Position numbers and translations under genes: made by a program. The notes under the pieces are model-generated. The model did no database searches and had not been told where the DNA came from. It was given only the letters and a program-made list of their open reading frames with translations. DNA of 64,000 bases from Amoebophrya sp. A120 (Eukaryota > Protista > Dinoflagellata). Positions within the stretch are counted from its first letter, which is position 1, and every line of letters begins with the position of its first letter. The stretch lies in contig CAJINV010000006.1 in NCBI GenBank assembly GCA_905178155.1, positions 1,861,876-1,925,875 on the forward strand, written 5' to 3'. This document shows positions 19,102 to 62,000 of the stretch, piece after piece.

Positions 19102-19296
19102 TATCCTGTGCAAAAGTATCGTACTCGTAAGTAATTGCAATCATGCATTGCAAATCTTTCTGTTAAGGGAAATCCGCATCACAAATTTTATTTCTCACGC
19201 TGAGGAAATTTGTAGTCCTCTGCTCGGCTTCAACATTGACGCAGTGCAAAAGTATCGTTATCGTACTCGTACTAATTGCGTTTGTGCATTACAAAC
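19102..19296. mobile_element. Two tandem left-end fragments of family B introners
   Basis: tatcctgtgcaaaagtatcgtactcgta at 19102 and gtgcaaaagtatcg at 19244; no right TIR. Confidence 0.75.
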
Positions 19297-23000: not shown

Positions 23001-26000
23001 TACACTTTTGCAATGCATACGGAAAGAAGTACGGGAATTTTTCGCGGGAAACCTACAACGGCTCCGACTCGAACGAACAGCAATTTCGGTCCCTGCCCGG
23101 CAGTATCAAATGCAAAAGTGCCTGGGTTTGGAAATCTGTAATGCTGAATGGTCATGAGTGAGCGCGCCTTTGAATGCAGCAGTAGTGCATGACAAGTTTT
23201 ATTTCAAGCACTTTCTCATGCTCAGTGCGCATTACAAACTGCGCTTTTTCATGACGAAATTGCGCCGCTTTTGTATGCTTTTATGCAATACAGATTTTTC
23301 TGAAGTCCTGGACACGCAATACAAAGGTTCAACCTTTATTCCAGACCCAGGGATATTTGCATTTGATAGGCAGTAAGCAGGCCCGGGCCGCCGGGGGCGC
23401 CAGCGTCGGCCCGCCGGTGCTGCACCACTTGCGCAGGCTATGAGAGTGCACAACTTCCCCCCCCTTATTTGCCATGCAAAATCTTCCCAAATCCAGTCTG
23501 TTCCTCATGGCAATCTTTGCATGACAAACAAGGTCCGAGCACGGGGACAGAGTCCCCGTGCGGCGACCTTCCGGCACTTGTCTGCGCGGTGGCACTGGGA
23601 AGGCAGGTCGCCTGCAGCTAGGTATCTCGGTGCGCCTTGCGTTCACTGGCCCGCGACGGGCCTGCGGACGCGGCCCCCTTGCTTGCGCGCACTACACTAG
23701 ACTCATTAGCCGGCCGCGCGCAAAGATAAAAGAAAAGAAGAAACTGGCGCGCGCCCGCCGGGTCTGGAGCCGGCCCCCAGGTCATGACGCGGCGACAGAG
23801 TCCCCGCACTGCCCTAGGGCCCTTCTCTGCCCCTTCCATCCTTGGCCGCGCGGTGTGCTGTCCGGGGAGTGTGCGTAGCTAGCCCTTAGGCCATGACGCG
23901 GGGACCGAGTCCCCGCGCTGGCCTAGGGCTTTCGCCCCTTGGCCGCACGGATTCACGGGGAGTGCTGCCTGCAAGCTAGCCCCTAGGCCATGGCGCAGGG
24001 ACCGAGTCCCCGCGCTGGCCTAGGGTTTTCACCCCTTGGCCGCACGGTGTCCGGGAAGCGCTCAGGCACAGCTGGTCCCTAGGCCATGACGCGGGGACCG
24101 AGTCCCCGCGCTGGCCTAGGGCTTTCGCCCGTTGGCCGCACGGTGTCCGGGAAGCGCTCACAGTTGGCCCCTAGGCCATGACGCGGGGGCCGAGTCCTCG
24201 CGCTTGCTTAGAGCTTTCGCCCCTAAGTCGGCCGCGCGGTTTCGCCGGGGAGCGCTCGCAACGAGCTGGCCCCTAGGCCATGGCGCGGGGACCGAGTCCC
24301 CGCGCTGGCCTAGGGCTTTCGCCCCTTGGCAGCACGGTGCCCGGGAAGCGCTCACAGCTGGCCCCTAGGCAATGACGCGGGGACAGAGTCCCCGCGCGCG
24401 CTGGCCTAGGCAGGGGGGGCCTTCGCCCTTTGGCCGCACGGGGTCACAGGAAGTGCTGCGAGCTAGCCCCTAGGCCATGCGCGGGGGCCGAGTCCCCGCG
24501 CTGCCCTAGGGGTTTCGCCCCGCCCTTGGCCGCGCGGTGTCCGGGAAGCGCTTACAGCTGGCCCCTAGGCCATGACGCGGGGACCGACCGGGCCCCCGCG
24601 CTGGCCTAGGGCCTTCGCCCCTTGGCCACACGGATTCACGGGAAGTGCTGCCTGCAAGCTAGCCCCTAGGCCATGGCGCGGGGACCGAGTCCCCGCGCTG
24701 GCCTAGGGCTTTCGCCCCTTTGCCGCACGGTGCCCGGGAAGCGCTCCGGCACAGCTGGCCCCTAGGCCATGACGCGGGGGCCGAGTCCCCGCGCTGGCCT
24801 AGGGCTTTCGCCCCTTGGCCGCACGGTGTCTGTCCGGGAAGCGCTCACAGCTGGCCCCTAGGCCATGACGCGGGGACCGAGTCCCCGCGCCGGCCTAGGA
24901 AGTGCTTGCGCCCCTTGGCCGCACGGTGTCCGGGAAGCGCTCACAGCTGGCCCCTAGGCCATGACGCGGGGACCGAGTCCCCGCGCGGGCCTAGGGCTTT
25001 CGCCCCTTGGCCGCACGGTGTCCGGGAAGCGCCCACAGCTGGCCCCTAGGCCATGACGCGGGGACCGAGTCCCCGCGCTGGCCTAGGGCTTTCGCCCCTT
25101 GGCCGCGCGGTGTCTGTCCGGGAAGCGCTCACAGCTGGCCCCTAGGCCATGACGCGGGGACCGAGTCCCCGCGCTGGCCTAGGGCTTTCGCCCCTTGGCC
25201 GGCCGAGGTGTGTCCGAAAGTCTGCCCGGGGTGTGTCCGAAAGTCTGCCCGGGGTGTGTCCGAAAGTCTGCCCGGGGTGTGTCCGGGGTGTGTCTGGGGT
25301 ATGTTCGGACTTTTTGCCTGGGGTGTGTTCGGGGGTCTGTCTGGGGTATGTCTGGGGTGTGTCTGGGGTCTGTCTGGGGTATGTTTATACCCCACCTGTT
25401 GGCTTTTCGGCAAAAAATTGTAGTCCGCTCGTGATTGAGGAGGATTTGCATACCCCTGACACACCCCCGAACATATTCCCGAACATACCCCTCGCCTGCA
25501 TTTTTGACCAGCTGCTGCAGTTTAGATAGTAATTCCTTCGGTTAGCCCAAATAGCCCTACACAACTCCAGTGTAGTAAACTTGTCATGCAACAGCGGTAT
25601 TCTTGCTGATGCTTTTCTTGCCGTTCATGCTATACAAATGAGGGGGAGGGGGAGCTATGTGCATTGTCATACAGGCACAAGGACTACGAGAAGCACCACG
25701 ACGACTTCCGGGACTACTTTGAGAGCGAAGTTATCGCAAGAAAAAACTGATGTGGTCTCAGTCTCAAGTTGTAATGCGCGACTGGCTTGAGACAGTTTTT
25801 TGTCATGCTGGAGATGCAATCGAAGACAGTCGTCTTTCATACGTGTTTTGCCTTGCATGTATCTGAAGCATCATAGATAATCTGTTTCTTGCTTCGTAAA
25901 AAATTTGATGTCTTTTACTGAGTCTACTGCAAATAATGCCCTTGAGACCACTGAGGAACGTTTTTCTTTGCATAGAAGTGATGCAGGAGCTGATTCAGCA

Positions 26001-29000
26001 AGCCAGGCGGGCGGAACGCCGACGCAGCAGCATCCGCAGCTCTTTGTCGGAGCACCAGGACTACATGCAGGAGTTCGTTTTTGCAGAGCTCGTGGCCTTT
26101 GTGGAGACCAAAAACCGCTCCAAGCGGGAGATGGAGCAAAACCGCCGCGTGTACAACAGTGTCGTGGCCGACCTGGCCGACATTTTTGGCGACCACCACG
26201 CGAGCCACCACGTCGACAAGTTTTCACGTGCGTCAGTATCAAGAAGAAAAATCCCCCCTCCCCATATCAAAGCGGAAATCTGTGATGCAGATTTGTGGTC
26301 ACAAATCAGCTCTGTCGTGCTAGAAGGGAAAAGATGTAGACACTGTAGCGCTGGTGGCCTGGGAAAGCCTGGCATCTTCAGCATGACAGGAGGCAGCAGG
26401 AAGTGGGAAACAGCATGACAAGTTGCCTGCAACCGAAGCCACGGCTGCGGCTCTTGGCCTTCTAGCAACGCAAGTCGATTTGTGTACTCAAATACGGCAT
26501 CACGAATTTCGTTTTCGATAAGGGGAGGGGGGATTTTTCCTTTTTATAGTCAGAGCAAGCCAGCATCAAACGCAGCAAGAAGCAGTTTCACGAGTCCATG
26601 CTGAAGGCCAAGCCCCTTATCAACTGTAAAAATGTCTGGGTCTGGAAGATTCTGACACTTGTCATGCACGTTTTGCATGAGCCATGATGTCTGTGATGCA
26701 TACCCTAGCAATACAGATTTTTTGAGGGCTTCTTGATGCGTATTCCGCATGACAAATGCCTTCTCAGCGTAGAAAAAAATGCATTTCCTTTGGTACTCAT
26801 ACAATACAGATTTTTTTGGAATCCAAATGCAGCATCACAAGTTGCATTCTTCCAGACCCAGACACTTTTACACTTCATACCCCTGATGCAAGAGCACTTC
26901 CAGGGCGCGAATTCCTTGCATACCGAAGAGCAATTCCACAGGCTCATGGAGCACATGGAAGACAAACTCTACAACCATTCGGACCACGAGGACCACGGCT
27001 TAACCTCTCGCATGGTGCGGAAAAACCACGGGTTTGACAAGGCCTCGGGATATGGATTGTAAAAATGTCTGGGTCTGGAAGGTTGGAACTTGTAATGCTA
27101 CCTTTCCATACCTAGAAAATCTGTATTGCATAACCAACAAAAGTCGCAACCTCTTTTGTCATGCAAAAACGCAGTTTCTCATGCGGATTTCCTATGAGGA
27201 AGCGTTTTGGGAAGTTGTCATGCCGGACTGCATTCGGAAGTGTTTTCATCATGCACAATTTAGCATCACAAGTTTCCAGACCCAGACATTTTTACAGTTG
27301 ATACGGGAAAGACGCATGCAAAACCGAAGATCGTGCACCAGAACACACCCGCGAGTGCGCAGCAGTTTAGTGGCAAGAAGACGGAAGATCTGAAGGAGCT
27401 GAACCACTTGACCAAGGAGGAGCAGCAGCTGCTGCAGGAATTTCGGGCGCAGAAGCAGCAGAAGCAGCAACGCCTGCACCCCACGATCCTATCAAATGTA
27501 AAAATGTCTGGGTCAGGAAGATTTCTAGATTTGTCATGCATATTTGCCATGACCCATGATGTCTGTGATGCATGCCGTAGCATCACAGATTTTTGGAGCG
27601 CTTTGTGATACCTCTACCGCATGAGAAATGCCCTCTCCGCGTGGCACAAACTGGAGTTCTCTTGCTGGTCATGCAATACAAATTTTTTCAGAATCCAGAG
27701 ACAGCATCACAAGTTTAGAGTCTTCCAGACCCAGACATTTTTGCATTTGATAGAGCCTGTTGCGGGACGATCTGCAGAAGGTAGACGGCGCCCTGCCCGG
27801 AGACTTGTCGCCCCCGCGCGGGCTGCAGCTGCTGCCGGCGACGCCGCGCATGAAGGGCAGTTTTTTTGCGGGAGACTGGAACACAGCTGCTGGTGGTCCA
27901 CCAGGAGCGCAAGCGGGAGTAGAACAGCCCTACACGGAGTATCGGGATGGCGTGCAATTCGAAGTAAACACCCCAACCCCGGCGAATGCTGTGGCCACGC
28001 CGCCATCGTTCCTCAAGATGGACAACGTGCACCTGCCACACACGTCCCTTTTCGCCGCCGGTGGCAACAACCTGTTGAAAGCGACGAAACAGTACTCGCA
28101 GAGCCCGGCAACGACCTTCGCTGGCCACAAAACCGCGCGCGGGTCCCTCACTTCGGGCGAAGACGCGGAAATTCAGAACAGCCTCCGTTTCGCGCATATC
28201 CAACAAAAAAACGTTGTTAGTGTAAATTTGTGATGCGCAACATGCAAGATGATTGCGGCTGTCATGCTTGGCATACGTCGGAAGGTCCATTAAAGGGCGT
28301 TTTCACGTACTATCTGCGCATGACAGGTTTTTGCTGTCATGCGAGAGATATTTGTGATGCTAAATCCTCCAAGAAAGTTACACCTACAATGTTTTTTCTT
28401 GGATAGCGCAGGGAACTTACTCCTTCGAAATGCCGCAGATAAACATGATGCCGGTGTTATCGTGAACAAAAACGTCCCCACCCCAGAGTCAAGATGGGAT
28501 TTCTGCTAGACAAATCTGTCAGCTTTGGGTGTTGCGCATGACAAGTTTGGCCTCGTGGTATGATCCTGGTTAGCTTGTTCAGCAGCATCACAGATCTAGC
28601 ATATCGCGCTGATTCTAGCATCGCAAATCCCAAAACACAACTAGAAACTGCTTCTCATGGGTCTCCGCATGAGAAAAATTTTCAGCATGCAGACTTGCAT
28701 AACAACTCTGGGGTGGGGACGTTTTTACATTTGATAGGTGTTTCAGCCGGCAGAGTTGGTGGAACAAAGATTGTTCAACGACCAGGTGCCCAGAAGGCGA
28801 GCAGAGGCAGTGATGCAGCAGGACAAGCAGTATCAAATGCAAATATGTCTCGGTGTAGAAGGAAGATGCGAGGTTTGTCATGCTTAAAGCTGGCATGACT
28901 GAAGAACTTGTGATGCCTGCCCAAGAAGAGATTCTTTTTCTTGTCATGCAAAAAAGCAGCTTGTCATGCGGAAACTGCAACGCTAAGCAGCGCAGATACA

Positions 29001-29479
29001 ACTTCTCATGTAGTTTGGCTGTGCATTACAGGACACTCACTATAATTCCCAACCCAGCATCACAAGTTTATTCCAGACCCAGACATATTTGCATTCGATA
29101 AGCAGCAAACGGTGACAACGGACGGAGAGCGTCGAACCCCGTCCCCTTATGAGAGTGCACAACTCCCCCTCCCCCTCATTTGTCATGCAAAATACCCAAT
29201 CCACCCTTTGCCTCTCGGCACTGTTTGCATGGCAAGTTCTGGTAGCCGAAATAGCACTATACTCCAGTGCAAATCTGTATCTGTCATGCAAAACCGACAC
29301 TCTTGCTGATGCTTGTATTGCCGTTCATGCTACACAAATGAGGGGGAGGTGGGGTTGTGCACTCTCATACCCCGTCGGGCAGGTTTATTCTGGGGCAGAA
29401 GCCCACGAACTTTGGCAACAAAAGCGTGGACACGGTGTATTTGGCTGACTTGACCAGCTTTGACAGCAAGAAGGTATAG
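20049..29479 (+). CDS. Hypothetical protein (coiled-coil/low complexity); 18 introners plus a GT-AG intron at 22322-22776
   Basis: Spliced frame MQDGRLPPSSTTYSQPRSERS...RMLNQVEEHVESRLQFEKDQHLKEKERLNRKIQNLQF...LHHLRRHKDYEKHHDDFRDYFESEVMQELIQQ...YLADLTSFDSKKV* is open across all 19 junctions. Confidence 0.78.
20091..20350. mobile_element. Introner, family A
   Basis: DR actcg/actcg. Confidence 0.9.
20426..20687. mobile_element. Introner, family A
   Basis: DR gacct/gacct. Confidence 0.9.
20752..20993. mobile_element. Introner, family I (TIR tatggcgttctcaa.tgttaca)
   Basis: DR gggga/gggga. Confidence 0.85.
21234..21571. mobile_element. Introner, family C
   Basis: DR gagac/gagac. Confidence 0.88.
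21623..21949. mobile_element. Introner, family G
   Basis: DR gcgag/gcgaa. Confidence 0.88.
22046..22298. mobile_element. Introner, family A
   Basis: DR ttagc/ttagc. Confidence 0.9.
22862..23019. mobile_element. Introner, family B (diverged)
   Basis: DR cggca/cggaa. Confidence 0.82.
23104..23368. mobile_element. Introner, family A
   Basis: DR ggcag/ggcag. Confidence 0.9.
23770..25202. repeat. GC-rich tandem satellite, ~92-105-bp unit, ~15 copies, each with an internal inverted repeat
   Basis: Unit ctggcccctaggccatgacgcggggaccgagtccccgcgctggcctagggctttcgccccttggccgcacggtgtccgggaagcgctcacag. Confidence 0.95.
25206..25390. repeat. G-rich short tandem repeats
   Basis: ggtgtgtccgaaagtctgcccgg x3, then ggggtgtgtct/ggggtatgt variants. 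Confidence 0.9.
25732..25974. mobile_element. Introner, family H-like (TIR tat.caagaaaaaaac)
   Basis: DR gaagt/gaagt. Confidence 0.8.
26237..26548. mobile_element. Introner, family C
   Basis: DR gtcag/gtcag. Confidence 0.9.
26618..26879. mobile_element. Introner, family A
   Basis: DR cccct/cccct. Confidence 0.9.
27051..27303. mobile_element. Introner, family A
   Basis: DR cggga/cggga. Confidence 0.9.
27490..27752. mobile_element. Introner, family A
   Basis: DR gatcc/gagcc. Confidence 0.9.
28197..28405. mobile_element. Introner, family H
   Basis: DR gcgca/gcgca. Confidence 0.87.
28458..28736. mobile_element. Introner, family E
   Basis: DR ggtgt/ggtgt. Confidence 0.9.
28831..29100. mobile_element. 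Introner, family A
   Basis: DR agcag/agcag. Confidence 0.88.
29148..29369. mobile_element. Introner, family F
   Basis: DR cccct/ccccg. Confidence 0.9.
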
Positions 29480-31705: not shown

Positions 31706-34119
31706 GAAGAAGAAGAAGAAGACAAAAATGGGAAGATTACCTGGAGGTGATCTCCCAAAAGATTGTGATTGATTCGAAACCTAAACGCAAACTCATAAAT
31801 CGAACATGAAATATCAAAGCCAAAACTTCTAATATTAAACATCGTAACTTCATCTTTAGACACGACTAAAAATGCAAAACCCTGGCCGCAGGCCATTCGC
31901 CTGTTATTCCGCAAGATACATTTGATTATACTTGAGATGCAAGAACTTTTTGAACAACTTTTAAACCTTATATTCCCGATGCAACAAGTAGAAGACGTGA
32001 CGAAGAAGACGCCACGCGGCAATGACACCCTCGAGCCGTTTCTCCGAAAGAACGTCAAGGCCGTTTTACTTTTTTCAACTATACAATGCGAGTAATCTAT
32101 CTCCTGAAAAAATCACTTTCATTTGAGTCTTATTCCCAATGCAATCTGACTTTCTTCTCATCGGTTTTAATAGATTTTTATTTTCACGATCAACTGTAAA
32201 CTACATGTAATAGTACATTTCATTTTTATAGTATTTCAAAAATCGCAATTTTTATTTTTCTATCGCTATGGTTTGTCAACATTTATTATCACATATACAT
32301 TTTGCATTTGCTCAGTTTTTCACACGACTGCAGGGTCGTAGAGGTCATTTCAGTTTCACATCACTAGAGAAGTAGTTCATGCGTGTATCCCATGCAGTAT
32401 ACTGTAGTACTTGTGCTAGAAAGCATCCGAAAAATAAGTATTCAACCCCGAGCACTATCCGAAAAAATAGAAAAACTCCCTTCCTTTTTAAAAACAGTTT
32501 GACAGGGCCGAGGTGGCGGGATGTTGGGGATGGCATGACAGTTATTCTTTTCAGCATCTCGTCTCAGTCACGAGGAGGAAATAAAGGTGGTCCTAGATCA
32601 TGAAAAAATTATCCTGTTTTATTGGAAGCCCCACTGTTTAGAAAGTTATCAACCCCTTTATTTGATGCTTGACAAGCACGACGCTATTGAGATCTTGACG
32701 ACGACGAAGAACGAAGTGGACAGGCCGCTCCTGCGCTTGTCTCTAGTTTGCTACGAGAAGTAAAATAGACACCCGCTTGACCATGTATCTCCCCGTGAGC
32801 GTGACACCTTGCCGTGCCTGATTTTATTGTTGGAATCAAGTAGTACTAGCTTTAGTGCCGCGCCGAGGGGTGGTCAGTGGTCTCTCGTAGTACCACCGCA
32901 TCAGACGCAGAGAAAATAAAGCACTACAGTAATATTTCAGCAAATCAGCTCATCTCATATGGCACAGAAAAACCACACGGAGGTTGTTGCATGTAGAAGC
33001 TTTTTTCAAGAAGCGGGAAGTTTATTACGCGGGAAGCACCCCTTCCCGGATTCTATTCCGCCTAGAGAGACGGGAAAAACTAGGTATACTACTTCTGCAA
33101 CGTCGAGACGTAGTCAAGATTTTGAACCCCCTGGCCGTGCTAGTGTCTGTACATGAAAAAAAAAATCAGCCAATAGAATTTTTGTGCGGCTGAGGTCTTC
33201 TTCTTCACCGGTAGTTCGTCCCAACGGGAACGGATACGGAGACGGTGAAGATTACTGGTTTTTGTCCTCCTGTCAAGCAGGAAAAGTGTTCAACCCTCTT
33301 GTTTGTTCAACCCTCTTGTCTGAATGCGCATGGCGATTAAACGCGTAAAAATAAACGACAAAGTTGTAGACCATTGCGAGTACAAATACAATCTATATTC
33401 CAATCTGTTGTAGGTTGCGGTTGGTTCTTGTGTGGCGCCCGCACTACTTCTTCGCCACAGCTGCCGTTCAGCAGCGCGATGCTGGTTGCTGGCTTCTTGA
33501 GGAGGAAACAAGGAAATAGAAAAAACTCATTGATTCATCCCTACGGAAAGAAACAAACTCATAGTTTGAACGCTGCTCGACGCTTTATTTATAGTGTCCA
33601 GCTGGGCTCCTGCTATCCTGGCTATTAACGTCAGGCACGTGGTGATCTCCCGATTTGGCACTTCTGAAAAGAGTTTGGAGTTGAATATTTTTGACTTTAA
33701 TAGGCCTTCTTCTAAAGAAAGTAGTATTAGTGAAATGAATACGTAAGCGAGAAGATCATGATGTGATGATTCCAGCAGTCTGGCGACGGAAGTGGAGTGA
33801 GGAAAATCCCACTAAACGGTGGACAAGTACAAGACCGCGAACAACGACGTGGGTTACAACAACAATTTCTACTCACACACCTGCTTCCTCTGCAGAATTT
33901 CAAACTTCTTTTCGAAGTCCTCCACCGGATTGGCCAACACATCAAGAATACCATCGTCGATCTGCTGGCCTCGTGGCAGGGCATGGAAAATTAAAATACA
34001 CGATGATTAAAATTGGATTCGCACACGAAGGTGTTCGACGAACAACCTTCCTCCAACCTCCAACTTTTGTAGCATTCACGCGAAGAACTAACATTTGTCG
34101 GAAGCAGAAGATTTTGCCA

Positions 34120-34704
34120 GAGCAGAGGCAGTGATGCAGCAGGACAAGCAGTATCAAATGGATGCAAATATGTCTGGGTATAGAAGGATGCGAGGTTTAT
34201 TGTCATGCTTGTCTGGCATGACTGAAGAACGTGTGATGCCTGCCCAAGAAGAGACCCTTTTTCTTGTCATGCAAAAAAGCAGCTTGTCATGCGGAAACCG
34301 AAACTGCAATGCTAAGCAGCGCAGATACAACTTCTCATGTTTGGCTGTGCATTACAGGACACTCACTATTCCCAACCCAGCATCACAAGTTTATTCCAGA
34401 CCCAGACATGTTTGCATTCGATAAGCAGCAAACGGTGACAACGGACGGCGAGCGTCGAACCCCGTCCCCTTATGAGAGTGCACAACTCCCCCTCCCCCTC
34501 ATTTGTCATGCAAAATACCCAATCCACCCTTTGCCTCTCGGCACTGTTTGCATGGCAAGTTCTGGTAGCCGAAATAGCACTATACTCCAGTGCAAATCTG
34601 TCATGCAAAACCGACACTCTTGCTGACACAAATGAGGGGGAGGTGGAGTTGTGCACTCTCATACCCCGTCGGGCAGGTTTATTCTGGGGCAGAAGCCCAC
34701 GAAC
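34120..34704 (+). repeat. Duplicated copy of 28799-29412 (exon pieces plus introners at 34152-34423 and 34471-34663) between 45-bp direct repeats
   Basis: Near-identical to the 3' end of gene 20049-29479. Flanks 34075-34119 and 34705-34749 differ at 2 positions. Confidence 0.92.
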
Positions 34705-34753
34705 TTCACGCAAAGAAGTAACATTTGTCGGAAGCAGAAGATTTTGCCAACGC

Positions 34754-48884: not shown

Positions 48885-50203
48885 GGACTGTTTTCCAGAT
48901 TGATTTTTGCTTTCTAGTATTTACGTTTGTCAAAGGAGCTAAATGCGGTTTTTCCAATAAGTGCGTGTCTGCTCTTGCCGATATTGGTACGCAAGGTTGC
49001 ACAACAAGAAGGAAGCTAAGCAACCCGGAGTCGATGCTTACAACTAAACAGTTTTGAATTTAGGAAAAACTGGCAGACAAGAATCGTCAACCTCAACCTA
49101 GTATACTGTTAAGTACTTTCTATCGTAGACAGTCTCGTCGTAGAGTTTTTTGCCCTCTGAGCTGCAAATGCAATCAAAAAAGTTTATAAAACGACAAAAC
49201 CTCTTTTGTATGTCATTATTGCATTGGTTTATTGTTGGATAAAAGTTATCGAATGAGAATCTGAAATAGTAAACGAATAACATTCAATCTCAAAGCGATA
49301 AGATTTGACAAAAAGAAATTAGTAGAATTGTGAAAAAAAATATTAGAAGAATTCCTCCTAGAAATTATAGGCGACACTAGATAGAAAATGATTTTTTCAA
49401 CACTTAGACTTTTTAAACTACGACGACTAAAAACCACCCCCGAAAATCTTCCACTTCTGAGGTTACAGCCTTCAGCTGACCAAGTTTTGTCCTTCCCTGA
49501 GAAGTGGTCACGATCATATTATACAACCTAATTCGTTATCAATCTATCTCATGCAATCAGAATCAGGTGCGCCATATAGCACAAACTACTCAACGACAGC
49601 AGACTAAATTTATGGAGAGATGCGTAACTACCACTGCTCTCATCAACGTACGTACCGCGATTTTTTTGCCGAAGAAGAAATTTGTAGAGTTAGCCGTTTA
49701 CAAGACGCGCCAATGACAAAATTTTATGCCACGTCTTATACTGGCGGCCTCCCTGATGAAATTTCTAGACCTCTTTTCGTCACTCCGACTTCGTATCTTA
49801 AGTTTGTTCTGGAAAAGCGTCGCCCATCAGGGCTGATGTGGGTGCGGCCTGCAGGAGGCTTGCGCCATCTTGTGGAAGAACCTGCGGGGCCAGTAAAAGA
49901 AGTAGAAGTGCTCCTGCTGATGTTCTTCTTCTCTGGTCAGAAGAACAGGGACTGCGCATCGTCACCAGCTCAACATACACATTGTCGCTCCACCAGAGAA
50001 GCAGGAACACGAGCGAGCTTCCCTTCAAGCACAAGTTTTGACAAAATTAACGGTGCTTGGTAAAAACAAGAACGTTGATGCGCTCACAACTCTACTCGGT
50101 CTTTTTACACACGATAGTTTGTTATTTGCAGTCACTGAGCACTTGCTCCGCTTCATTCTCATCCATCTTCCTCCTCGTTTTCGCTGGATTCAAAGAAACA
50201 AAA

Positions 50204-51702
50204 ATGGCCTTTCGCTTCCGTCGTGAGGGGAACTACACGAAGCACCGCAAGCACATGGAGAACATGGGCTTGCAGCTATCCTGTGCAAGAAAAGCATCGT
50301 ACTCGTACGAGGAATCACAGTCATGCAAGACAAATCTCTTTTTCAAGCTAAGTCAGCATGACAGATTTCATTTCTCATGCTGAGCTAATTTGTATTGCAA
50401 TACTACGAGTAGTACGATGCTTTTGCAAGAATGCATAACAGCCCTGGCTGGATGATTTCCGTTGGCGCGTGTGCAATTTTCAGTACCACTGGTACCTTGG
50501 ACCAAAAGCGCACCAGGCGATCGAAGAAAATGCAATCGGACAAAGGGAAATTCCGTATTTGCAAAACATTCCGAGTCGAGAACAACATGTTGCAACAACT
50601 ACAGGAGCGCGAAACACAGCAGCAGGTCAAGGTCTGGTCCATCACGTTGCGAGAGGACAGCACAACCGGAGCGCCCCATTTCGTACCTTCCTCCCGAACA
50701 TCGTGCCGCAGCGCAAGCTATCAAATGCAAATATCCCTGGACGTCTGGAAGATTCCGAGATGTGTCATGCAGTTTTTCCAAGCTCCGCCAAGTCTGGAAT
50801 GCAGGCCCTAGGATCACAGCTTCTTCATCTTCCCCTTGGTGATCCCTATTCTGCATGAGAAATTTCCAATGAGTCGGCATGACCAGAAGTGGGCAACTTT
50901 TGCAACTCATGCAACACAGATTTTTGTAGCGATGCAGTGGTCCGCAACATGCATCACAGATTCGCACCCTTCTAGACCCAGACATATGCGCAATGCATAC
51001 AAGCAGAGCAACCCCTTTTGCCTGTCGTCGCACAACAGCACCGGTTATCAACTGCAAAAATGTCTGGGTCTGGAAGAATGCCAGACTTGTCATGCAGGTT
51101 TTCCATGACCCATGAGGTCTGGCATGATCATGAAGGACATAGCATGACAGATTCTGTGAGAGTTCTAGCATGCCTATCGTCCTGCGTGAGAAACTGCCAC
51201 TCGATTAGGCCAAAAGTGGACAGCTTTTGGTAATCATGCAACACAGATTTTTACATGATTCAGATTTAGCATGACAAGTTGTTTTGTTCCAGACCCAGAC
51301 ATTTTTACATTTGATACCGGTTGGGTGGAAGCACGGGGCAGGACGGAGTTACTTACCGAAACGAAGCCGCGAACGAAGCACCAGGTGTCCGGTATGGATT
51401 GCAAAAATGTCTGGGTCTGGAAGATTGCAACTTGTGATGCTATTTTTGGAATCTAAAAAAATCTGTATTGCATGAGCAGCAAGTAGAGGCGTCCAGTTTT
51501 AGCTCCGCGTAGAGGGCATTTCTCATGCGGGATAGGCATCAAGATGCCTGCAAAAAATTTGTGATGCTGGGGCATACACCACAGAGATCACGGGTCATGC
51601 AAAATGTCCATGACAAACCTTGCATTCTTCCCGACCCAGACATTTTTGCACTTGATATCCGGAACCGATGACCGCATTCCGGAGATGCCGAAGTTCAGGT
51701 GA
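50204..51702 (+). CDS. Small basic hypothetical protein; 4 introners
   Basis: Spliced frame MAFRFRREGNYTKHRKHMENMGLQPWLDDFRWRVCNFQYHWYLGPK...FLPNIVPQRKQSNPFCLSSHNSTGWVEARGRTELL...RIPEMPKFR*. Three junctions are independently confirmed by the intron-free copy at 52232-52416. Confidence 0.82.
50277..50437. mobile_element. Introner, family B
   Basis: DR gcagc/acagc. Confidence 0.85.
50719..50999. mobile_element. Introner, family A
   Basis: DR caagc/caagc; empty site at ~52260. Confidence 0.93.
51046..51316. mobile_element. Introner, family A
   Basis: DR ccggt/ccggt; empty site at ~52301. Confidence 0.93.
51393..51657. mobile_element. Introner, family A
   Basis: DR tccgg/tccgg; empty site at ~52372. 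Confidence 0.93.
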
Positions 51703-51763
51703 AGGATGGTGAGCAAGAACACGAGTACGACCTCCGGGGTTGCATTTTCCATATATGTCCTGC

Positions 51764-51976
51764 TCACACGAACAGTCAGTCACACGAACAGTGTGTCAGA
51801 TAGATACTCACAGTCAGTCACACGAACAGTGTGTCTGACAGTCAGTCAGAACAGTGTGTCAGATACAGAACAGTGTGTCTGACAGTCAGATAGATACTCA
51901 CAGAACAGTGTGTCAGACAGTCAGTCACACGAACAGTCAATAGATAGATACTCACAGCCACACGAACAGTGTGTCA
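51764..51976. repeat. Mosaic short tandem repeat
   Basis: Shuffled modules cacacgaacag, tgtgtc, cagtcagt and gatagatactcacag. Confidence 0.9.
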
Positions 51977-53483
51977 TTTTTTCACTACCCCAACCACTCT
52001 GACAGTCAACTGTAAAAGGCGGTAATAAAAGAAAACTGGTATACAATAGTAGGCTCGATAGCCCTTGTAGGGGCGTGAAAGTTGTTCTTACTAGATTATC
52101 ACTTTTTCTATTTTACCGCGAAGTAGTGACATCAAATAGAAGCACAGGAGACTTGGTAGAAAAATTTCGAACCTTCGAGAAACATTGGTATATGAAAAAA
52201 CACGAGAAACTTTAATTGTGTTGCTTTATATCCTTCCTCCCGAACATCGTGCCGCAGCGCAAGCAGAGCAACCCCTTTTGCCTGTCGTCGCACAACAGCA
52301 CCGGTTGGGTGGAAGCGAGGGGCAGGACGGAGTTACTTACCGAAACGAAGCCGCGAACGAAGCACCAGGTCTCCGGAACCGATGACCGAATTCCGGAAAT
52401 GCCGAAATTCAGGTGATGAAATAAGATGAGCAAGGCAGCAGGGGGTCGCATTTTCATCAATTATGTTCTACCTCCTTGGGCTTGACGCTGACGCACAGTT
52501 TCTACTGCAGCTGTGTTGCTAAGGACAATGAGAATGAAGTGTTGTTCGGGACAATGAAGCTCTCTCGGCGGGGGCCGCGCAAAAACGATTTTATTTCAAA
52601 AAAAGCACCACTGCATTTTTCTCCACTAGATGTTCTTTTTATTTAACGAGCAGCCTGTTGAGTTCGTCCCAACTTTGAGCAGTTCATCAGAGATGTTTCG
52701 CCCGTCCTCCCATGGTAGCCAGCGGCAGCGCGCAAGGAGATCCATACAGGTCTATGAATTTTTACTAGGATGATAATGTATCTGAACCATAAGAACATCG
52801 TATTTTGAACGAAGATCTACTGTATAGCGGTATTAGGTGCGCAGCGCTTGTTCTGATCAGTTTTTATTTCCACGTGGCTATGCTTGATATTGACGCACCA
52901 AGACTACGAAGCTCTTCTATCTTAGCGCGTTTTTTTGATGCTATAGCAAGCGGACAAAAAGATCTCACGATTTAGTATATGTCGGCAAGGGAAGTAGACC
53001 TAGCTGATAGTTTGGTATCTTGATCGATCTCATTTTCTCTTTTTCCGGCTGCGCGACGAGATCTATTTATCGTTTTTTTGCAGGTCGGCGCAGCCGTTTG
53101 TATTTCTGACGATAGCAAGCAGACACAGAATGACGCACAGCCACACGAGCACAGCACAGTACGAACTGTTCATGATTTTTCCACTACCCCAACCACTCTG
53201 ACAGTCAACTGTAAAAGGCGGAGGTGAACAAGAGAAGCTGATTTACAATCAATAGTAAGCGCGCTAGCCCTGCTTCTAGGGTCGTGAAAGTTCTTACCCG
53301 ATAGAATCAGTTTTTCTATTTTACCGTTTAGTAGTGACATCAAATTATAGTACAGCAGACTTGATATAGAAAAACTTAAACTTTCCGATAATTTTATAAA
53401 TGTTATTTTACGAACCTTCGAGAAACTTTGATATATGAAAAAACACGAAAAACTTATAATAGTTTTGCAGTGTGTTGCTTTAT
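51977..53483. repeat. Direct duplication 51977-52230 / 53176-53483
   Basis: cactaccccaaccactctgacagtcaactgtaaaaggcgg ... cgaaccttcgagaaac ... gtgttgctttata in both copies. Confidence 0.88.
52232..52416 (+). pseudogene. Intron-free partial copy of the 3' coding end of gene 50204-51702
   Basis: Colinear with exons 50687-50718, 51005-51045, 51322-51392 and 51663-51702. All three introners are absent and each DR is present once. Confidence 0.9.
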
Positions 53484-54088
53484 AGATTGTTTCGTCGCGC
53501 GTCAAATCCAGATAGTGATACAACCATTGAGGACATCGATGCTTTCAAAACCCTTTAAAAACACGACGCTGCTGAAATAGAACAAAAAACAGCTACACGC
53601 AACATAGATCTATCACGCAAAAAGTTCGATTTCTTTATCGGATCGTTTGGAGTATAACAAAAAACTTCAGCGTGCCGCCAGCCACGAACGACCTACTTCT
53701 AGCAGTCTAATGCTCAGAAGAGTCTTCTGCGCGAAGAACTACATGCATTAACCTTATTGATAAACGTTTTTTGTCGTAAGTATTTTTCGACTCACTTTTT
53801 CCAAACCGGAAACTACTATTAAACACGACTTCTGAGCCCGTTTTTTATTCCCGGCATTCGTCGGTCGAAAATTCACCTGGGTTACATTCTAGATACAGAC
53901 ACAACTTAAGTCTAAGATTGTGAAGGCGAGACACAATTCTTTTTGATTGTCGCATTTTCGCAACTACGATAAGCAAATGCTTACCACTACCACACGTTGT
54001 TGGACGCCTCAATTGACCTCCCAAAGTAACTTTATATATTTCCTTGTTGATACCGCCTTTAAAAGAGTCTTCACGAGGGGGAGGCTTC

Positions 54089-55127
54089 TACCGAATATTC
54101 AGTGGAGCTTCGCCTTCGGATAAAAACTAAAGCCATACAGGAGAACTGAAATTCGAAATTCTCTCAGTTCAAATCCATTTTTACGTTTTTCTCTCCACAG
54201 CTGCTTCCAAAGGAATTCGCAGCTCAGAACGTTCTTGAGTATCCGCGAACAGTTTCTATCGGAAAGCAGCCTGGTGATACATTAGATCTGCATACATAAT
54301 TTTTGTACGATGTTCGACGCCTACTTCCTAGAGCTAGATTAATAACTACAGAATTATATATTTCCTGTTTGTTTATTTCCTACCGAATTGTAGTGACAAC
54401 GAGAACGACACTCACTTCCGCCCCAATCGCATGATTATATCAAGTAGGGGCCGTTCAGATCGTAGCTATAAGTAGGAGAAAGACCCGTTGTCTAGAAGTA
54501 GACCCAAGAGCATTAACAAGCTGAAGAAAGACGACACATACGCTGCAGCAACTTCCGGAGGCTCTTTCAGGAGGAAGGAGCACAGTCTAAAAATCTTTGG
54601 CAAGAGCAAGACGGTGAAGTAGTATCTCTTTCTTTTTCAACAGCAAAACCTAGGGACAACGGCACGACGGGTCTCTCTTTCAAACGAATTTTCGGCGCAA
54701 GACAACTACACCGGTACCGAATATTCAGTGGAGCTTCGCCTTCGGATAAAAACTACATCGGTAGAAAGAGAAGAACTGAGATTCTAAATAGTCTCAGTTC
54801 AAAATCAAATCCATATATAGTGTCTACCACAGCAGCTACAACAGCTTCCAAAAGCATTCGCAGCTCCCAAAGCGTTCTGGAGTATCCGCGAATATTAGCG
54901 TCTATTGGAAAGGAGCAGCCTGGTGATACATTGAGTCTGCTTGTTACATGATTTTTGTACGATTTTTCCTAGAGCTATTCAAGAGAATTATCATTACCCA
55001 GCATTTGTTTCCCTATCGAATCGTCAAAACGGTACTAACTTCCCAAAACCCGGCATTATATCAAGTAGGGGTCGTGTTGTAGAATCTAGCTAGACGAGGA
55101 CGACCTGTACTAGAGAAACCACAAGAA
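54089..55127. repeat. Diverged ~420-bp direct duplication (54089-~54510 / 54715-~55127)
   Basis: taccgaatattcagtggagcttcgccttcggataaaaacta, gagtatccgcgaa, gcagcctggtgatacatt and tatatcaagtagggg recur colinearly. Confidence 0.88.
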
Positions 55128-56077
55128 GTGCCAGGCGTCATCATTCTAGCGCGCCACAATTACGGCGAAACTTTAGTTTCGGAACATCAAGAACTTCCTT
55201 TCGCCTTCTCGTCCTTTCGAGAAGGCAGACCAGCGTTAGTACAAGAACGACCAGCACAGCATTTATTCAGCGGGTTTGGAAAGGGCCACACCGCAGCTCC
55301 ATTTTACGCCAAGAATAAAAGGGAAAGAAGAAGAAGAACTTCGACAGCTGATATCGTTTTATCTGAGCAACAGTTACAGCACTAGCAGCAGCAGCAGCAG
55401 TAGTGCTTCTCTAAGATCCAGGAGGACAAGAGCTACCGGTTGAAGAAATTTGTAAGGCCTGTGAAGCAGAAGAAAATCATTTACAACAGGACCGGACGGA
55501 TAAGCCGAAAATCATTTACAACTAGTACGGGGCCGCCGAGGACAACTTGCAGCAGTTGTAGTTCTACCGCAACTTCTACAACAACCTCAGAAGTTGTCCA
55601 GCGCCCTCTATTTGGCGAATATATTGCAGAGGAACGAAGAAAAATTCAGATCTTTGTACGATTGAACTACGAGCAGAAAGAGAAGAAGATAAATGCCTTG
55701 GTGACAGTACGTACTATAGATAGGACGACGTATTTTAGAAGTCAGCCGCGCCAAAGAGCCGAGGAGAAGTTCTCCTGGACGAGAACACATCTATCAATTG
55801 CACTACACGACCTATTTGGACACTGAATTGAAGCTACGCGACCGGGTCGCTTCGTTTCGCGCACGATCATCTTCACGAAGAAGCTACACGGGTACTATCT
55901 TTTTTTTCTTAGATGAGCGTGGCTGCGGCCTTTTCCTAGTGCTTGTTGCATGGTGGTAGTTGTAGAGGGTTACTTCTAGATCGTGAAGGTTGTAAGAAAG
56001 TATGCAAGTGCCATCAACTAGATCAACATTTTATCTCTTGAAGAACATTACTACACAGGTGCCAACGATAAGCGAAG

Positions 56078-59000
56078 ATGTACGCGAACCAGTCATCTTC
56101 ATATTCGGGGGTGCGTGGTGGACCACGATCACAGCGACAAGGTGGTGCTACTGCAAAAAATCAAGGCACTAGTGTCAAGAACACGACTTCAAGTTGTACT
56201 AGCATGTCGAGCAGTCGAGCAACCCCTCTTCCAGGTACTTCGTATGATTATGATTACCAGCAACAGCAGACTAGGGACAACAGTAGAGACCACAGGCCGC
56301 GCGGCGGGGGTCAACAACTCGAAGACCACAGGCCGCGCGGCGGGGGCCAACAACAACAACTCCGCCAAGCGGACGAGCACAATACTATCCCGTACCCAGC
56401 GGTCCCCTCTCGGCCGCCCGTTCCTGGCGACGGGTTGTACGCGAGTCGGCACGAAGGAGCTCCTGCAGGGAAAGCTGCTGCCAACAGGTTTTATTCCGCA
56501 ACGGGAGGAGGTGGCCGCGGTGGTGGGGCTGGAGCTCCAACTGCTTCTGGGGCGAGGCATGTGGATCATCAACAGAAGTCCTCTCCTTCGTACTACGACT
56601 ACCAGGATGCAGCTGACCACCAGGACCAACGACCAAGTGGAGGCATGATCAATCAGGTTATGGATGTGTCAGGATCGAAATCGACAAAATCGAAACAATT
56701 TGTGATGCATAAAGCCGCTACTAGTTGGAGCGCAGTTTCTCAGTGGCGCATGACAAATTTCGGGAGCACCAAAATCCAGTCTGTCATGCTGTTCGGGCAA
56801 ACAAGACTGCTCCTGTCATGCTACTCTGGCAGCACATTGTGTACCCGTAAACAGGCTTACAATCGGTCTCAGTTGCCTTATCCCCAATACAGGCCTCTAG
56901 TGTCCTACAGTTTATGCATCACAAATTTTTCGACTTTGTCGATTTCGATCCTGACAGTTCCATACAGGTTCGGGCAGGAGTACAAACCGCGAAGATTTCT
57001 TCACACCCTTCTATCAAATGTAAAAATGTCTGTGTCTGGAAACTTCTGATGCAGTGTGGCGTATCATGAGGAGACCACAATTGCTGGCTCAGCATGACAA
57101 GTTTCTCAGCTTCTAGGTGTTGCCTATTCTGCAAGACAAACTACGTTTCTGCATGACAGAAAAGTGTGGCTCTTTGGTAATGTGCATGACAGATTTAAGA
57201 GTCATGCCAGACAAGCATGACAAACTTGCATTCTTCCAGACCCAGACATTTTTACACTTGATACCTTCTGCGAAGGAACAACAACAACATCATGCTAGAG
57301 ATAATTTCAAGATGGGACGTGCTGGAGGTGGGGAGCCAACGTACAGTAAAAATTCGACGGCGGACTATCCTCGTCGAGGTCCTCTGCAAAGGGATCACGT
57401 TCTTCTTGACAGCTTCAGCTACGGTCGCGATCATTACAACAATCAGACTCGTCGTTCCTACGAGAACGGCGACCAGGGAGAGGTGGTCCCTGGTGGCCAT
57501 CGAGCTACTACAGAACGCTCATACAACAGGAACAGCTACGACGACCTCCAGAACTATGAAAACCCCCAGTTACTGGACATCCAGCGCGAGGATCGGGGGT
57601 CGACATGGGCGGGCTACAACAACTACCGTAATGCTCATTCCGGCGGACCAACATCTTCGAGACGAGACGCACAAAATTACGTCCACCAGTATCAAGAAGC
57701 AGGGTCGTCAGGGATGAATAAAAATGCGCTCGACCGACAGCAGCAGCAGTGCGGGGGCGGAGCGGCTGCGGCTTCATCCTCGGGCGCTGGTGGTGGTGGC
57801 CACTACAAGAACAATCACAAGCCCAACTACATGTTGACCAAGAAGAGTGGCACGACAAACCCAAATGCATCCGGCTTGTTCAGTGGGAAGAACAAGAACC
57901 CCTGCCATGTGTTCCCCCTGAAGCCGGACTACAGCTCGCATGTGTTGCCCCCACCGCCATCCGCATCATCTGCCGGCGCAGGAGTCTATCACGGTAACAC
58001 TCGTAACAAAAACGATACGTTTTACAACCGCCGGCGACCGAGTTCTTTCGAGATGGAAACGAGAGGCTTGGAAAATCAAGTAGACCACTTGTCTCAGTCA
58101 GGAGGACCAACCTCCCGCCCGAGGAGCCGGGCTGGAACAAGTACGAGCGGAAAACAAGATCAGGACCACCGGCAAGCGCAACACCATCCTCAGCATCAGA
58201 GTGGTCAACAACATCCGTGGATAATGAAAGGCGATGACGCGGTACAACGTAGTTGTCGGGGAACTAGAATATTAAATACTGGCACTGTAGTTGACCACAG
58301 AAGCAGATACTGTGACGACGCGGCAACTGAAGTTGAAGAGAATATTGAAGCAAATTACTCAACACGCGGCCCACCCCCACCTCCTGCTGTTCATGAGTAT
58401 AATCAAAATCATGCGAGCTCGAGCAGTAGAATAGTACAGAAAGGTGGAAATAACATTCCGATGAACAAGGGCAAGATAAATGCAGCAGTGGTTCACAAAA
58501 AAGACAACAAGCCCGCGGCCCACTACCGAGTGGAAGACCAGCGAGGAGGGCAGCAGCAAAACTTTTACGCGAACAAACGAGATGAAGTTTTGACACGGGG
58601 GCCTGGAGAAACGGACCACGATTTTATTCACCAAGGCCACGACCCGCCAAGTAAAGGAGATCATGGACGACGGCGTCTGGGACACCAGCGGGGCTATCAG
58701 TACGGTGAAGAACATGATCAGGGGGCTCATGATTTTTACCTGAACATGGAGCAGCAGCAGCAGCATGGAGAGCCCACTGCAAGTACTTCTAGAGCTCCTG
58801 CTCACGATCTTCATCACTTGTGCAATGTTGTTGCACGAGGAGAGCAAATTGAGGGACAAGATGAACATTCCCCGGTGGACAGACAGAACCGCTCGCGTGC
58901 GAATTCGAGCCGCACACCCGCGGCGCCGTCCGGGTCCTCTTCCCGCGAGGGAGGAGCAACAACTCGTGATGTTCATGTTGGCCTGCAACAACATCCAGCT

Positions 59001-62000
59001 CAGCAGACCATGACTTCGGCGCAGGGCGGAGGAGGTGAAGATTATCGTACACTGAGGACCTTCAAGCAGTGTGAGTCAGAGCGCTACGATATCACAAGAA
59101 AAAGTGTACACGTACACGGTTTGCGTTTTTTCCCCAAAAAAATTTTTTGGCGGCCCCCTAGCGAGACGTAGTGGCACCACTTGAAGCCTTCGCCCCGGCG
59201 TTGGAGAGACTGTCGCTCTACAATGGTCTGATTTAACTATGGGCGCAAGCTTTTAGGGTCGCCGCCCAAGCCCGATGCATTTTGGTGGATGATATCCACG
59301 AGGCAGACCTGCGATCCTGGCTCCAGATGGGGCCCCTTGCATCAGCGCAAAGCAGCTCCCCCTCCAATGCCCGACAGTGTCCCACCGCCATGAACACTCC
59401 ACCCCCACCCGCCAGGCTGTGTTTGGTGTCGGAAACATTGATGGGGGCTGCGGAATATTGTTTGGGCGGGAGCCGAACTGCTTCAGATTTCTCGGCAGGT
59501 TCGTCTGGCTGTGTTGTGTTCCGAGATCTGGGAAAGTTTCCAAATTTCGGATGTCCGGAAAAACGCAATTTTTTGCATACATCCAAGGGCATATTTTTCA
59601 GATTGGCCAAAAACCGTGTACATGGAACCTAGCCACCACGCTATGGTCCACGTACACGGTTTCAAAAGTAGGAAATACGCAACAAATTTCAAAAAGGGGC
59701 CACAAAAACCGTGTGCATCGCATCTAGACTGCATGGTATGGCCGATGTACACGGTTCAGAGCGTCTATCTCCGGGCCCGACCACTTCGCAGACCGTGTAC
59801 ATCCATCATACCATGCAGGTTGGATGCGATGTACACGGTTTTTTGATGGTGCGCAGTTTCACGCTCGAAATTCAGATAAGTTTGCCTCTTTTTCTGCGGA
59901 TTTTCTTGACCCCAAGAAAAACCGTGAATGAGCAAAACCGTGAAGATTATCGTACAATGAGGACCTTCAAGCAGTGTGAGTCAGAGCGCTACGAACGCCA
60001 GCGGGATTTGTACACTAAGGCTTTCATAAACAACAGGAAGACCAACTACACGACAAACGACCGTCCTGAAATGGAAAGGAACTCATCTCATCTCCAGGGT
60101 CGCAGTAAACAGCTGCGCTTGTCTGCGGATCAGGATCAGGAACAAGAACCTACGCAGCAGCACCAGCACAACCAGCAAGTTCTTGAGGATCCGCTTTATT
60201 TTCCTGAAACATCGTCAACCTCAAGTCGGATCGGGTCCGATCCGGTCACTACGACCGAAAACTCCACCAGTAGCAGTTTCTCTTCATCTGGTGGTGCAGA
60301 TGGGAGTACTGCTGGTGCAACTGGATGCCGTAAAAATGACGGAAAAATCGTCCAGGATGATCATGTTGGGAATTTTTCTAGAAACCCCGACGTGGTTGCC
60401 GGAGTTGCACGACCTGCTGCCGCTGCAGCTTCAGAAACGCCTGCGCCACCTGTGCGGCATCATGTTCTTGAAGCGAATATAAATTTGAATCCCGCAGTAG
60501 GAGAACCATCAAATCGCGTTCTTGCACCTCCTGCTCGTGCACCACCACCTCCACCGGCAATAATTTCCAACGAGGACATGGGAGGGTCTTGTCAGTACGC
60601 TGGGGTTCTTGAGTTGCATGGGGACAATCGGGAAGATCATGATTACGACGTTCAAATGCAGGATAAAAACGATGGTGTTCTTGGTTCGTCTCCTCCTGAA
60701 AAAAACCTTCGAGGACTTCTCGAAACACAGCACGGAGGTTTTATTTCAAGTCGAAACGAGAACGACCAGCAGGTGCAGGACCACTCTCACTATAGGACGA
60801 AACAAGTACCTCCGCTGCACGAGGAAGGGACAAGGAACGCTGGCCGCGAACAACATCAAGGGAGGCTGAAGGTTTTGCCTAATAATCCGTTGAAAGAATG
60901 TGTAGCTGCTGCTGGTGACCATGATCATGAATTCAAAGCAACTTCTGCTGCGAGATACGAGCAAAGTGCTGCGGCGCAGGACCACGAGCACGACGAGATC
61001 ATGCAAGACGTTTCTTCTACGAATTCTGTGACCGCTCCCAAGAACCACAGAGCGAACAGAAGTGGCACGACGGATGCTGATCGTAAGCAGACTGACACAA
61101 CTCTCGATGCTGATCGTAAGCAGACTGACACAACTCTCGTCGATGATATTTCTGCTGGAGATGCTCTTGATAAAAAACAGCAGCAGTTCCATACTTCTTT
61201 ACCGGGTCCTCGTGATCCGGTAGTGGTTGAGGGTTTCGAGGATAATGCGACTCTACACGCTCTTGGTCAGGACGTTGATGTCGAAACAAAAAAGACCGCC
61301 ACGGAAAATAGGAAAGCAAGGGAGCCAACGGCTCAAGATTTGGTGGACCGGGAAGAACAAAATTCCGAGATACTTGGTGCGCCGAATCTTTCTACTCCTA
61401 GCACTTCGGTAAAGCAGAGAAGCTCCGCGCAGCAAGAAGAAGATGAGCTTGTCCACGGAATGAACAAACGGCCTAGCAGCTCGTCCTCCACCGTAGCAGA
61501 AGTCGTGGCGGGAGGTTTGGTCTCTAGTACAACTTCTGCACAAGATAAGCAGCAAGAAAAAGATCCAGGAGCGGCAACGGAATCATCATCGTCCCGACCC
61601 CGAGAAGAAGTGGTGGACGAAAATAGCAGGAATAGCCACGACATCAAGCAGGATCTTCGCGTCGACAAAGCAGGAGCCGCCACGGTCGTTTACGCAGCTT
61701 TAGCGGCGGCTACGAGCAGCGAACCGGTGGAGAGGGCCAGAGTGATTAGGGAAGGAGAAGGAGAGGACACAACGGTCTACGTTTCCCTTACCCCGAAAGA
61801 CCCTTTGAACACCAGCAACAGACACAACGACCTCCGAAACAGACGGGGAGGTGCAGCTGGGGTCGTCGTCCCGGGGGGACAACAAACCCTTGGAGGTCCA
61901 CCCTCAAGTGGAGCTCCTGGTCCCACGACAGGAAGTAGTGTCCTCGTGGATCAACACCCAGGTTCTGGCTCTCTGTCCGCCACAGGAGATGAAACCATTG

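Follow-up and report, generated by a model that had tools for sequence, protein, structure and literature searches.

The introners of Amoebophrya sp. A120, a marine parasite of algae, have been described as strain-specific introns of a non-canonical kind, bounded by short direct repeats, carrying terminal inverted repeats (TAT...AAA) and resembling miniature inverted-repeat transposable elements (MITEs) (PMC7789003). The genome contains 29,850 of these elements, whose proliferation is argued to be strain-specific and ongoing, and section 16 of the same paper likens the boundary repeats to target-site duplications. A second study places A120 introners in several transposon classes, with target-site duplications among its criteria (PMC12130899), and Symbiodinium introners come with 4-nucleotide (nt) duplications (bioRxiv 10.1101/2020.10.14.339549). 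Published comparisons of A120 introners rely on the very distant strain A25; sections 10, 11, 12 and 16 of PMC7789003 compare A25 with A120 and describe no within-genome copy with empty sites. The genome also has 185 tandem gene duplicates at protein identity of at least 95% (PMC7789003). Here, we analysed 64,000 nt of the A120 genome (contig CAJINV010000006.1, positions 1,861,876 to 1,925,875; the window, numbered from its first letter), in which a gene with four introners, at 50204-51702, is followed by an intron-free copy of its 3' part at 52232-52416, here named the fragment. We conclude that the fragment is genuine: it duplicates part of the gene, was formerly under selection and does not have the introner content of its parent. 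By title and abstract opening, none of the papers found in literature searches dealt with this locus.

The fragment equals the joined 3' exon pieces of the gene

The region 52225-52425 was compared with the window by BLAST, which returned four non-self matches (E 6e-12 to 2e-31): 50686-50718 (33/33), 51000-51046 (47/47), 51316-51392 (74/77) and 51658-51702 (42/45). Joined with CAAGC, CCGGT and TCCGG once each, these four segments equal 52232-52416 at 179/185 bases without a gap, as an earlier reading of the sequence alone (the sequence-only reading) had proposed. That reading spoke of the last four exon pieces, which holds for the three full 3' pieces, while the first covers no more than the terminal 33 nt of exon 2, from 50686. 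It also spoke of three introners; I2-I4 are indeed empty in the fragment, but the gene carries a fourth, I1 (50277-50437), outside it. The parts of the locus are given below, with the public A120 protein P0001 as reference and with contigs from sequencing runs. Eight of 12 matching runs were compared (X1, X3, X5-X8, X9 and X10; X2, X4, X11 and X12 were left out). None of the runs containing the sequence was on record as RNA. X1 is DNA-like, with flat depth across non-coding DNA, and may be the assembly's own source, whereas X3, X5 and X6, one sample from one study, behave as RNA.

50204-50276, plus strand: exon 1, coding; the spliced product equals P0001; RNA joint 50272->50439, with 4 ambiguous bases
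50277-50437, unstranded: introner I1; ends TAT...ATA; flanking repeat GCAGC/ACAGC with 1 mismatch; removed in X3, X5 and X6 RNA contigs
50443-50718, plus strand: exon 2; its last 33 nt (50686-50718) recur at 52232-52264
50719-50999, unstranded: introner I2; repeat CAAGC; not in the fragment; one X9 record crosses exon 2/I2 with 0 differences
51005-51045, plus strand: exon 3; from BLAST within the window and the splice giving P0001
51046-51316, unstranded: introner I3; repeat CCGGT; not in the fragment
51322-51392, plus strand: exon 4; evidence as for exon 3
51393-51657, unstranded: introner I4; repeat TCCGG; not in the fragment; RNA joint 51387->51658 in X5 and X6
51663-51702, plus strand: exon 5 to the stop codon; evidence as for exon 3
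51703-51960, plus strand: 3' untranslated region (UTR) of the gene; about 60 nt homologous to the fragment UTR, followed by a degenerate short tandem array; spliced RNA contigs extend over the region
51940-52230, plus strand: D1, first copy of a non-coding flank present twice; runs up to the fragment junction; depth 39 in DNA contig 51993-52261
52232-52416, plus strand: the fragment, a headless intron-free copy; P0001 residues 107-166, with the protein unchanged, 6 synonymous differences and no in-frame ATG that could be used
52417-52604, plus strand: 3' UTR of the fragment; ends in an A7 run at 52598-52604; RNA contigs from 52341 to 52572-52589
53130-53484, plus strand: D2, second copy of the flank; no poly(A) after it; X1 contigs 52341-53211 and 53192-53700

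The five joined exons of the gene translate letter for letter to P0001 (166 residues; 'unnamed protein product' in the public record), which exon 2 matches at 100%, so the reading frame of the comparison is independently fixed. In this frame all six base differences between fragment and gene are synonymous, in agreement with the codon changes listed by the sequence-only reading. Base 52231, just before the match, is T in place of A in the gene and G in D2, and could be counted as a seventh, non-synonymous difference. The residues 107-166 correspond almost exactly to a conserved C-terminal block, of which 46/60 and 48/60 positions are identical in two orthologues, gap-free. A single in-frame ATG within the open frame of the fragment would yield 5 residues.

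The fragment had been presented as a built-in control for the direct repeats and for splicing, which is overstated: every model predicts a single repeat copy at an empty site, and this already follows from the gap-free alignment of the two orthologues with P0001 across all four introner sites and from the RNA joints that show splicing of I1 and I4. As a demonstration the fragment is neat, and it may serve as a clock, but it adds no new proof of target-site duplication or of precise splicing.

The fragment is the front of a second tandem unit

The order of the locus is gene, short UTR, tandem array, D1, fragment, UTR, spacer and D2. The duplication of downstream DNA noticed earlier was recovered: over the flank D, which is about 290 nt long, 51975-52230 aligns to 53173-53484 with 223 matches, 27 mismatches (27/250 aligned) and 12 gaps, and the homology stops at the base directly before the fragment start. 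The first 60 nt or so after both stop codons are weakly but significantly alike (score 31, versus 14.1+/-2.9 and a maximum of 30 in 300 shuffles). The end of D1/D2 homology at the fragment, taken with the likeness of the UTRs, indicates that a second unit, beginning within exon 2, lies head to tail behind the first, with the fragment as its front part. As in the tandem gene duplicates of PMC7789003, there is a head-to-tail copy with a conserved protein and a duplicated flank; the units are adjacent, the non-coding flank is included, and the junction is present in DNA at genome depth. Unlike those duplicates, the fragment covers 60/166 residues, is too short for the 90% length rule and is contained in RNA contigs of the copy upstream.

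Inside the otherwise gappy D1/D2 homology there is a perfect 40-nt core (51975-52022 / 53173-53221), whose sequence suggests a conserved non-coding element. Other identities for D were considered and rejected. Rfam gave three matches in 49000-56500, all at E of at least 1.7 and far below the gathering score; there was no third copy that would make D a repeat family, and scores against the repeat at 54089/54715 were within the shuffle range; no partner motif was found that would make the end of D1 an introner end.

Both units are present in DNA and the fragment is covered by RNA contigs

In X1, contigs 51629-52012, 51993-52261, 52341-53211 and 53192-53700 have depths of 39-48, with flanks at 42-45 (upstream flank 42.4) and exon 2 at 43.5, like the flanks. 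The junction between D1 and the fragment is in contig 51993-52261 (depth 39), which reaches 30 nt past it; contigs end there because the next word is common to exon 2. Two further sources contain the same junction, an X7 contig and RNA contigs with a different study code. As the junction and all parts, exon 2 included, are at single-copy depth, a chimera or an intact paralogue is unlikely, and the suggestion of a DNA-level duplicate or allele is upheld. A full intron-free paralogue, which the sequence-only reading had thought worth searching for, was not seen, and with exon 2 single-copy in X1 no second 5' half at identity of at least 88% is indicated. The opposite view, that the assembly placed two haplotypes or a transcript contig in tandem, could point to the fact that no record spans both copies, that X1, if it is the source of the assembly, is not independent evidence, and that one X7 contig takes another path at the 33-nt repeat. 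It is hardly tenable given that both units and their junction have the full, not half, X1 depth and that the junction recurs in X7 and in RNA contigs under a different study code.

In RNA, the joint 50272->50439 (I1) was found in X3, X5 and X6, and 51387->51658 (I4) in X5 and X6. A 635-nt contig, present in 3/3 RNA-like runs, contains the I4 junction, the UTR, the array and D1 and continues to 52261 (the X3 version has 31 extra letters at I4); two more stretches, 52232-52370 and 52341 to about 52580, have contigs of their own. As to the earlier question whether the duplicated downstream DNA lies within the transcript, D1 is inside spliced RNA contigs. The last position with RNA contigs is 52589 in X3, 52586 in X5 and 52572 in X6, and in X3 nothing covers D2, which in a single sample is no evidence that D2 is untranscribed. 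Contig depths of 17-24 for the 5' part, 27-32 for the UTR path and 25-28 for the fragment path fit one read-through and cannot rank the parts, and the depth of the shared-piece contig (32-52, versus 44-49 expected for two passes) is compatible with one read-through without being proof. In the simplest reading of these contigs, which show neither strand nor single molecules, the fragment would lie in the 3' UTR of the gene.

The fragment comes from a copy under selection

Between fragment and gene, there are 6 changes at about 41-50 synonymous sites, 0 at about 130-139 replacement sites, and 0 insertions or deletions (indels). This pattern has P = 1e-4 to 5e-4 if both copies were neutral and P = 0.003-0.007 if only the gene was constrained (0.013-0.031 if base 52231 is counted as a replacement). 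Scaled from the divergence of D, a neutral fragment would be expected to carry about 7.5 replacements and about 4.4 indels, versus 0 observed. The proportion of synonymous differences (pS), 0.12-0.15 (95% interval 0.06-0.29), agrees as a clock with the D divergence of 0.108. Neutral change in the fragment has a 95% upper bound of 0.022 per site, versus roughly 0.05-0.07 per lineage since the split, so the fragment was constrained for most of its history. The earlier suggestion that it came from a copy under selection is therefore supported, with 0 replacements, 0 indels and 6 synonymous changes while D diverged by 11%. Without a usable ATG but also without any amino-acid replacement or indel, the fragment probably belonged, as one half, to a copy that worked until recently.

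A simple partial duplication or a dead retrocopy fails to explain this constraint. The sequence-only reading had left the choice between a DNA duplicate or allele and a cDNA-derived copy; the former is favoured, and a plain cDNA copy that was dead on arrival is disfavoured by the selection. Insertion of a truncated cDNA, lacking the 5' end of a long transcript, behind the gene it came from, as a retrocopy or by RNA-templated repair, would account for the precise absence of introns, the 5' truncation and the A7 run at 52598-52604 (runs of at least 7 A number 22 in the window, about 1% per 30 nt). In addition, D could have travelled in a long UTR, given that RNA contigs contain D1, and PMC7789003 mentions retroposed transcripts in dinoflagellates. 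Such an origin predicts neutral decay, of which none is seen; there is no target-site duplication, since the longest word common to the 32 nt preceding the fragment and the 63 nt that begin with the A run is 5 nt, and not at the flanks; and about 880 nt of homology follow beyond the A run, up to the end of D2, where poly(A) is missing. We consider it highly improbable. Compared with processed pseudogenes and dinoflagellate retrocopies, which are intronless and 5'-truncated with an A run downstream, the fragment differs in having neither target-site duplication nor neutral decay, in homology far past the A run and in its position beside the parent.

A probable remnant of a once-working copy, and the origin of the empty sites

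We favour the view that the fragment is the remnant of a once-working copy, now an untranslated passenger in the 3' UTR of the gene, with empty sites that predate I2-I4, to which we give a probability of about 0.5. The once-working source is likely a beheaded tandem paralogue or a diverged allele. Two working copies, tandem paralogues or alleles, would have diverged by about 11-15% at neutral sites; I2-I4 would then have inserted into one copy only, with 5 nt duplicated each time; a recent DNA rearrangement would have fused D1, at its end, with the interior of exon 2 in the other copy, by deletion of the head or by unequal or templated recombination between alleles, which would give the same sequence; and transcripts of the intact gene would now run through D1 into the fragment. 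With respect to timing, elements of suitable youth exist (four pairs of window elements picked for closeness differ by 6.5-11.5%), and the repeats of I2-I4 are perfect while that of I1 is not. Insertion into one copy needs fewer events than insertion followed by loss.

Several points weigh against this view. No second 5' half is present to show that the copy was ever whole, and the break, 2-3 codons into the conserved C-terminal block, also suits a selected module. In a working copy, gains of other introners might be expected (17/49 gaps between neighbouring elements are 100 nt or shorter), and the 3:0 split of introners has P of about 0.13-0.25 by hand calculation. Perfect repeats are common (36/49) and so date little, and two wild X9 records over exon 2/I2 do not differ from the window and show no sign of highly diverged alleles. 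The A7 run lies 182 nt after the fragment stop. X1 is possibly the source of the assembly; contigs extend no more than 30 nt beyond the junction, and no contig bridges the two copies.

The precise absence of three adjacent 3' introns is a textbook mark of reverse-transcriptase-mediated loss, and it counts for the opposite polarity, in which the same DNA duplicate once had I2-I4 and lost them all together by recombination with spliced cDNA while it was still working, so that the empty sites date nothing. This would explain the 3:0 split in one step; the nearest relatives of I2-I4 in the window are at 68-83% identity, and a 202-nt contig over the 3' part of I2 has single-copy depth in X1, which fits an older I2; A120 has retroelements both of the LTR (long terminal repeat) and of the non-LTR type (PMC7789003). 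It needs one event more than insertion into one copy, the sample of relatives in the window is tiny versus the elements of the whole genome, and PMC7789003 argues for ongoing proliferation. We regard such a loss as possible but unlikely. Since precise cDNA-mediated loss of three adjacent introns in a working copy would leave the same sequence, the three insertions are not yet dated by their empty sites.

Under the favoured view of a once-working remnant, as under loss, a near-identical empty-site copy in the same genome shows the sites base by base as they were before insertion (or as loss left them) and supplies an internal clock, and genome-wide empty-site pairs could date the introner invasion and measure loss.

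The 33-nt repeat and the intervening 1.5 kilobases

A further explanation is that the fragment is in use as a second version of the 3' half, exon 2 being joined to it over the 33-nt repeat by long-range non-canonical splicing or, in some cells, by DNA pop-out. The 5' half of the gene followed by the fragment translates exactly to P0001, without the three introners. Such use would account for lasting selection without a lost head and for a break at the start of the conserved block. An insert elsewhere in the window, with a 55-nt repeat, has the same frame open on both sides, and one X7 contig of depth 6 carries the reciprocal join 52231->50686, from D1 through the 33-nt repeat to 21 nt into I2. 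This join is either a graph artefact, the likely case since the repeat exceeds the 31-nt indexing words and the data are gappy and of low depth, or a product of recombination. Moreover, the RNA contigs that enter the fragment follow the gene-type path (I4 spliced, UTR, D1), although contigs cannot phase across the 85-nt stretch identical in gene and fragment, and no inverted repeat pairing with the end of D1 was found for the four short motifs searched. We hold this use to be rather improbable. The locus is suited to test whether the U1-lacking splicing system, or DNA recombination, skips the 1.5 kilobases (kb) between the 33-nt repeats.

In a bolder reading, which we find doubtful, the 5' half and the fragment would together be the original gene, and the 1.5 kb between the 33-nt repeats would have been copied from a diverged allele by DNA repair. 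The outline of the locus, a 33-nt repeat around 1,513 nt, is like that of three inserts in the window with flanking repeats of 45-69 nt. If true, three introners would have been delivered at once without transposition, and pop-out would restore an identical protein with three fewer introns. If the three other inserts took the same route, intron gain and loss in Amoebophrya would be block-wise and driven by repair.

Introners of the gene and of the window

The four introners start with TAT, end with ATA and have terminal inverted repeats and an A stretch, in accordance with the definition of A120 introners; among the sliding boundary options examined for I1-I4, there were no GT..AG ends. They share with the introners of PMC7789003 the terminal inverted repeats from TAT and the boundary direct repeats, which in this window are consistently 5 nt, in comparison with the short direct repeats described there. 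The 5-nt repeats are perfect at I2-I4 and 4/5 at I1, a length within the 3-5 nt of the definition. Removal is seen directly as RNA joints for I1 and I4, and indirectly, through P0001, for I2 and I3. Within the window, I1, I2, I3 and I4 have 17, 11, 43 and 36 BLAST matches, and their summed depth in X1 is very high. A census of the window found 52 candidate elements of introner shape, with a 5-nt repeat that is perfect in 35/52 and matches in at least 4/5 positions in 44/52; it contains a few false hits and missed I1 and I2.

In X10, 199/201 aligned raw RNA reads are partial and mostly on I3, with no exon cover; this run is probably from another strain and is uninformative on the gene. Its reads match the 3' end of I3 (51229-51320), mostly at 90-95%, with unrelated flanks, so an element end related to I3 sits in an abundant transcript there. 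At 504-843 there is a 340-nt near-palindromic element with both ends of the left type and no flanking 5-nt repeat.

The gene product is a predicted mitoribosomal protein

Orthologues of P0001 are P0003 (strain A25) and P0002, and 29 representatives reach E 0.001. The best matches among solved structures are mS92 (9HQV_BD, E 1.4e-20) and mS151 (9FI8_HI, E 1e-19), from entries of the Toxoplasma mitoribosome small subunit (PMC11742926 and PMC11652630). The homology to these Toxoplasma gondii chains (9HQV chain BD, 9FI8 chain HI) is full-length and takes in both conserved blocks; unlike them, the Amoebophrya product has a longer variable linker. The gene is thus a predicted mitoribosomal mS92/mS151 homologue, with its function in Amoebophrya suggested by sequence. 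A Pfam search gave only 2 weak matches, both below the cut-off, and in metagenome scans 0/175 candidate stretches were confirmed in the first and 1/294 in the second (L001, 45% over 31 residues), too distant to use. A conserved, spliced mS92 homologue bears on the debated mitochondrial genome of Amoebophrya and would be one more mitoribosomal protein for the case of a cryptic mitochondrial genome (PMC7789003).

Rearrangements in the neighbourhood

Three inserts with long flanking direct repeats were found elsewhere in the window. A 45-nt repeat (34075-34119 / 34705-34749) surrounds 34120-34706, a near-identical, indel-rich copy of 28799-29412, 5.3 kb away, which includes an introner and flanking sequence; by its sequence, it looks like a templated insertion. 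A 69-nt repeat (18684-18752 / 19296-19361; 94%) surrounds an insert of about 550 nt that starts with TATGG and holds introner fragments. The 55-nt repeat (59035-59089 / 59940-59994; 54/55) surrounds an 850-nt insert with an introner-like TATC start and an internal palindrome, and at both repeats the same frame is open, in long open reading frames of 684 and 998 codons. There is also a second local non-coding duplication, 54089-54519 / 54715-55127, with 69 mismatches in 380 aligned bases (18%), 21 gaps and a perfect 41-nt start, for which Rfam gave no match. The three inserts and this duplication indicate that such rearrangements recur in this neighbourhood. Finally, 23767-25384 is a GC-rich tandem array with units of about 96 nt (about 14 copies), followed by 23/11-nt repeats.

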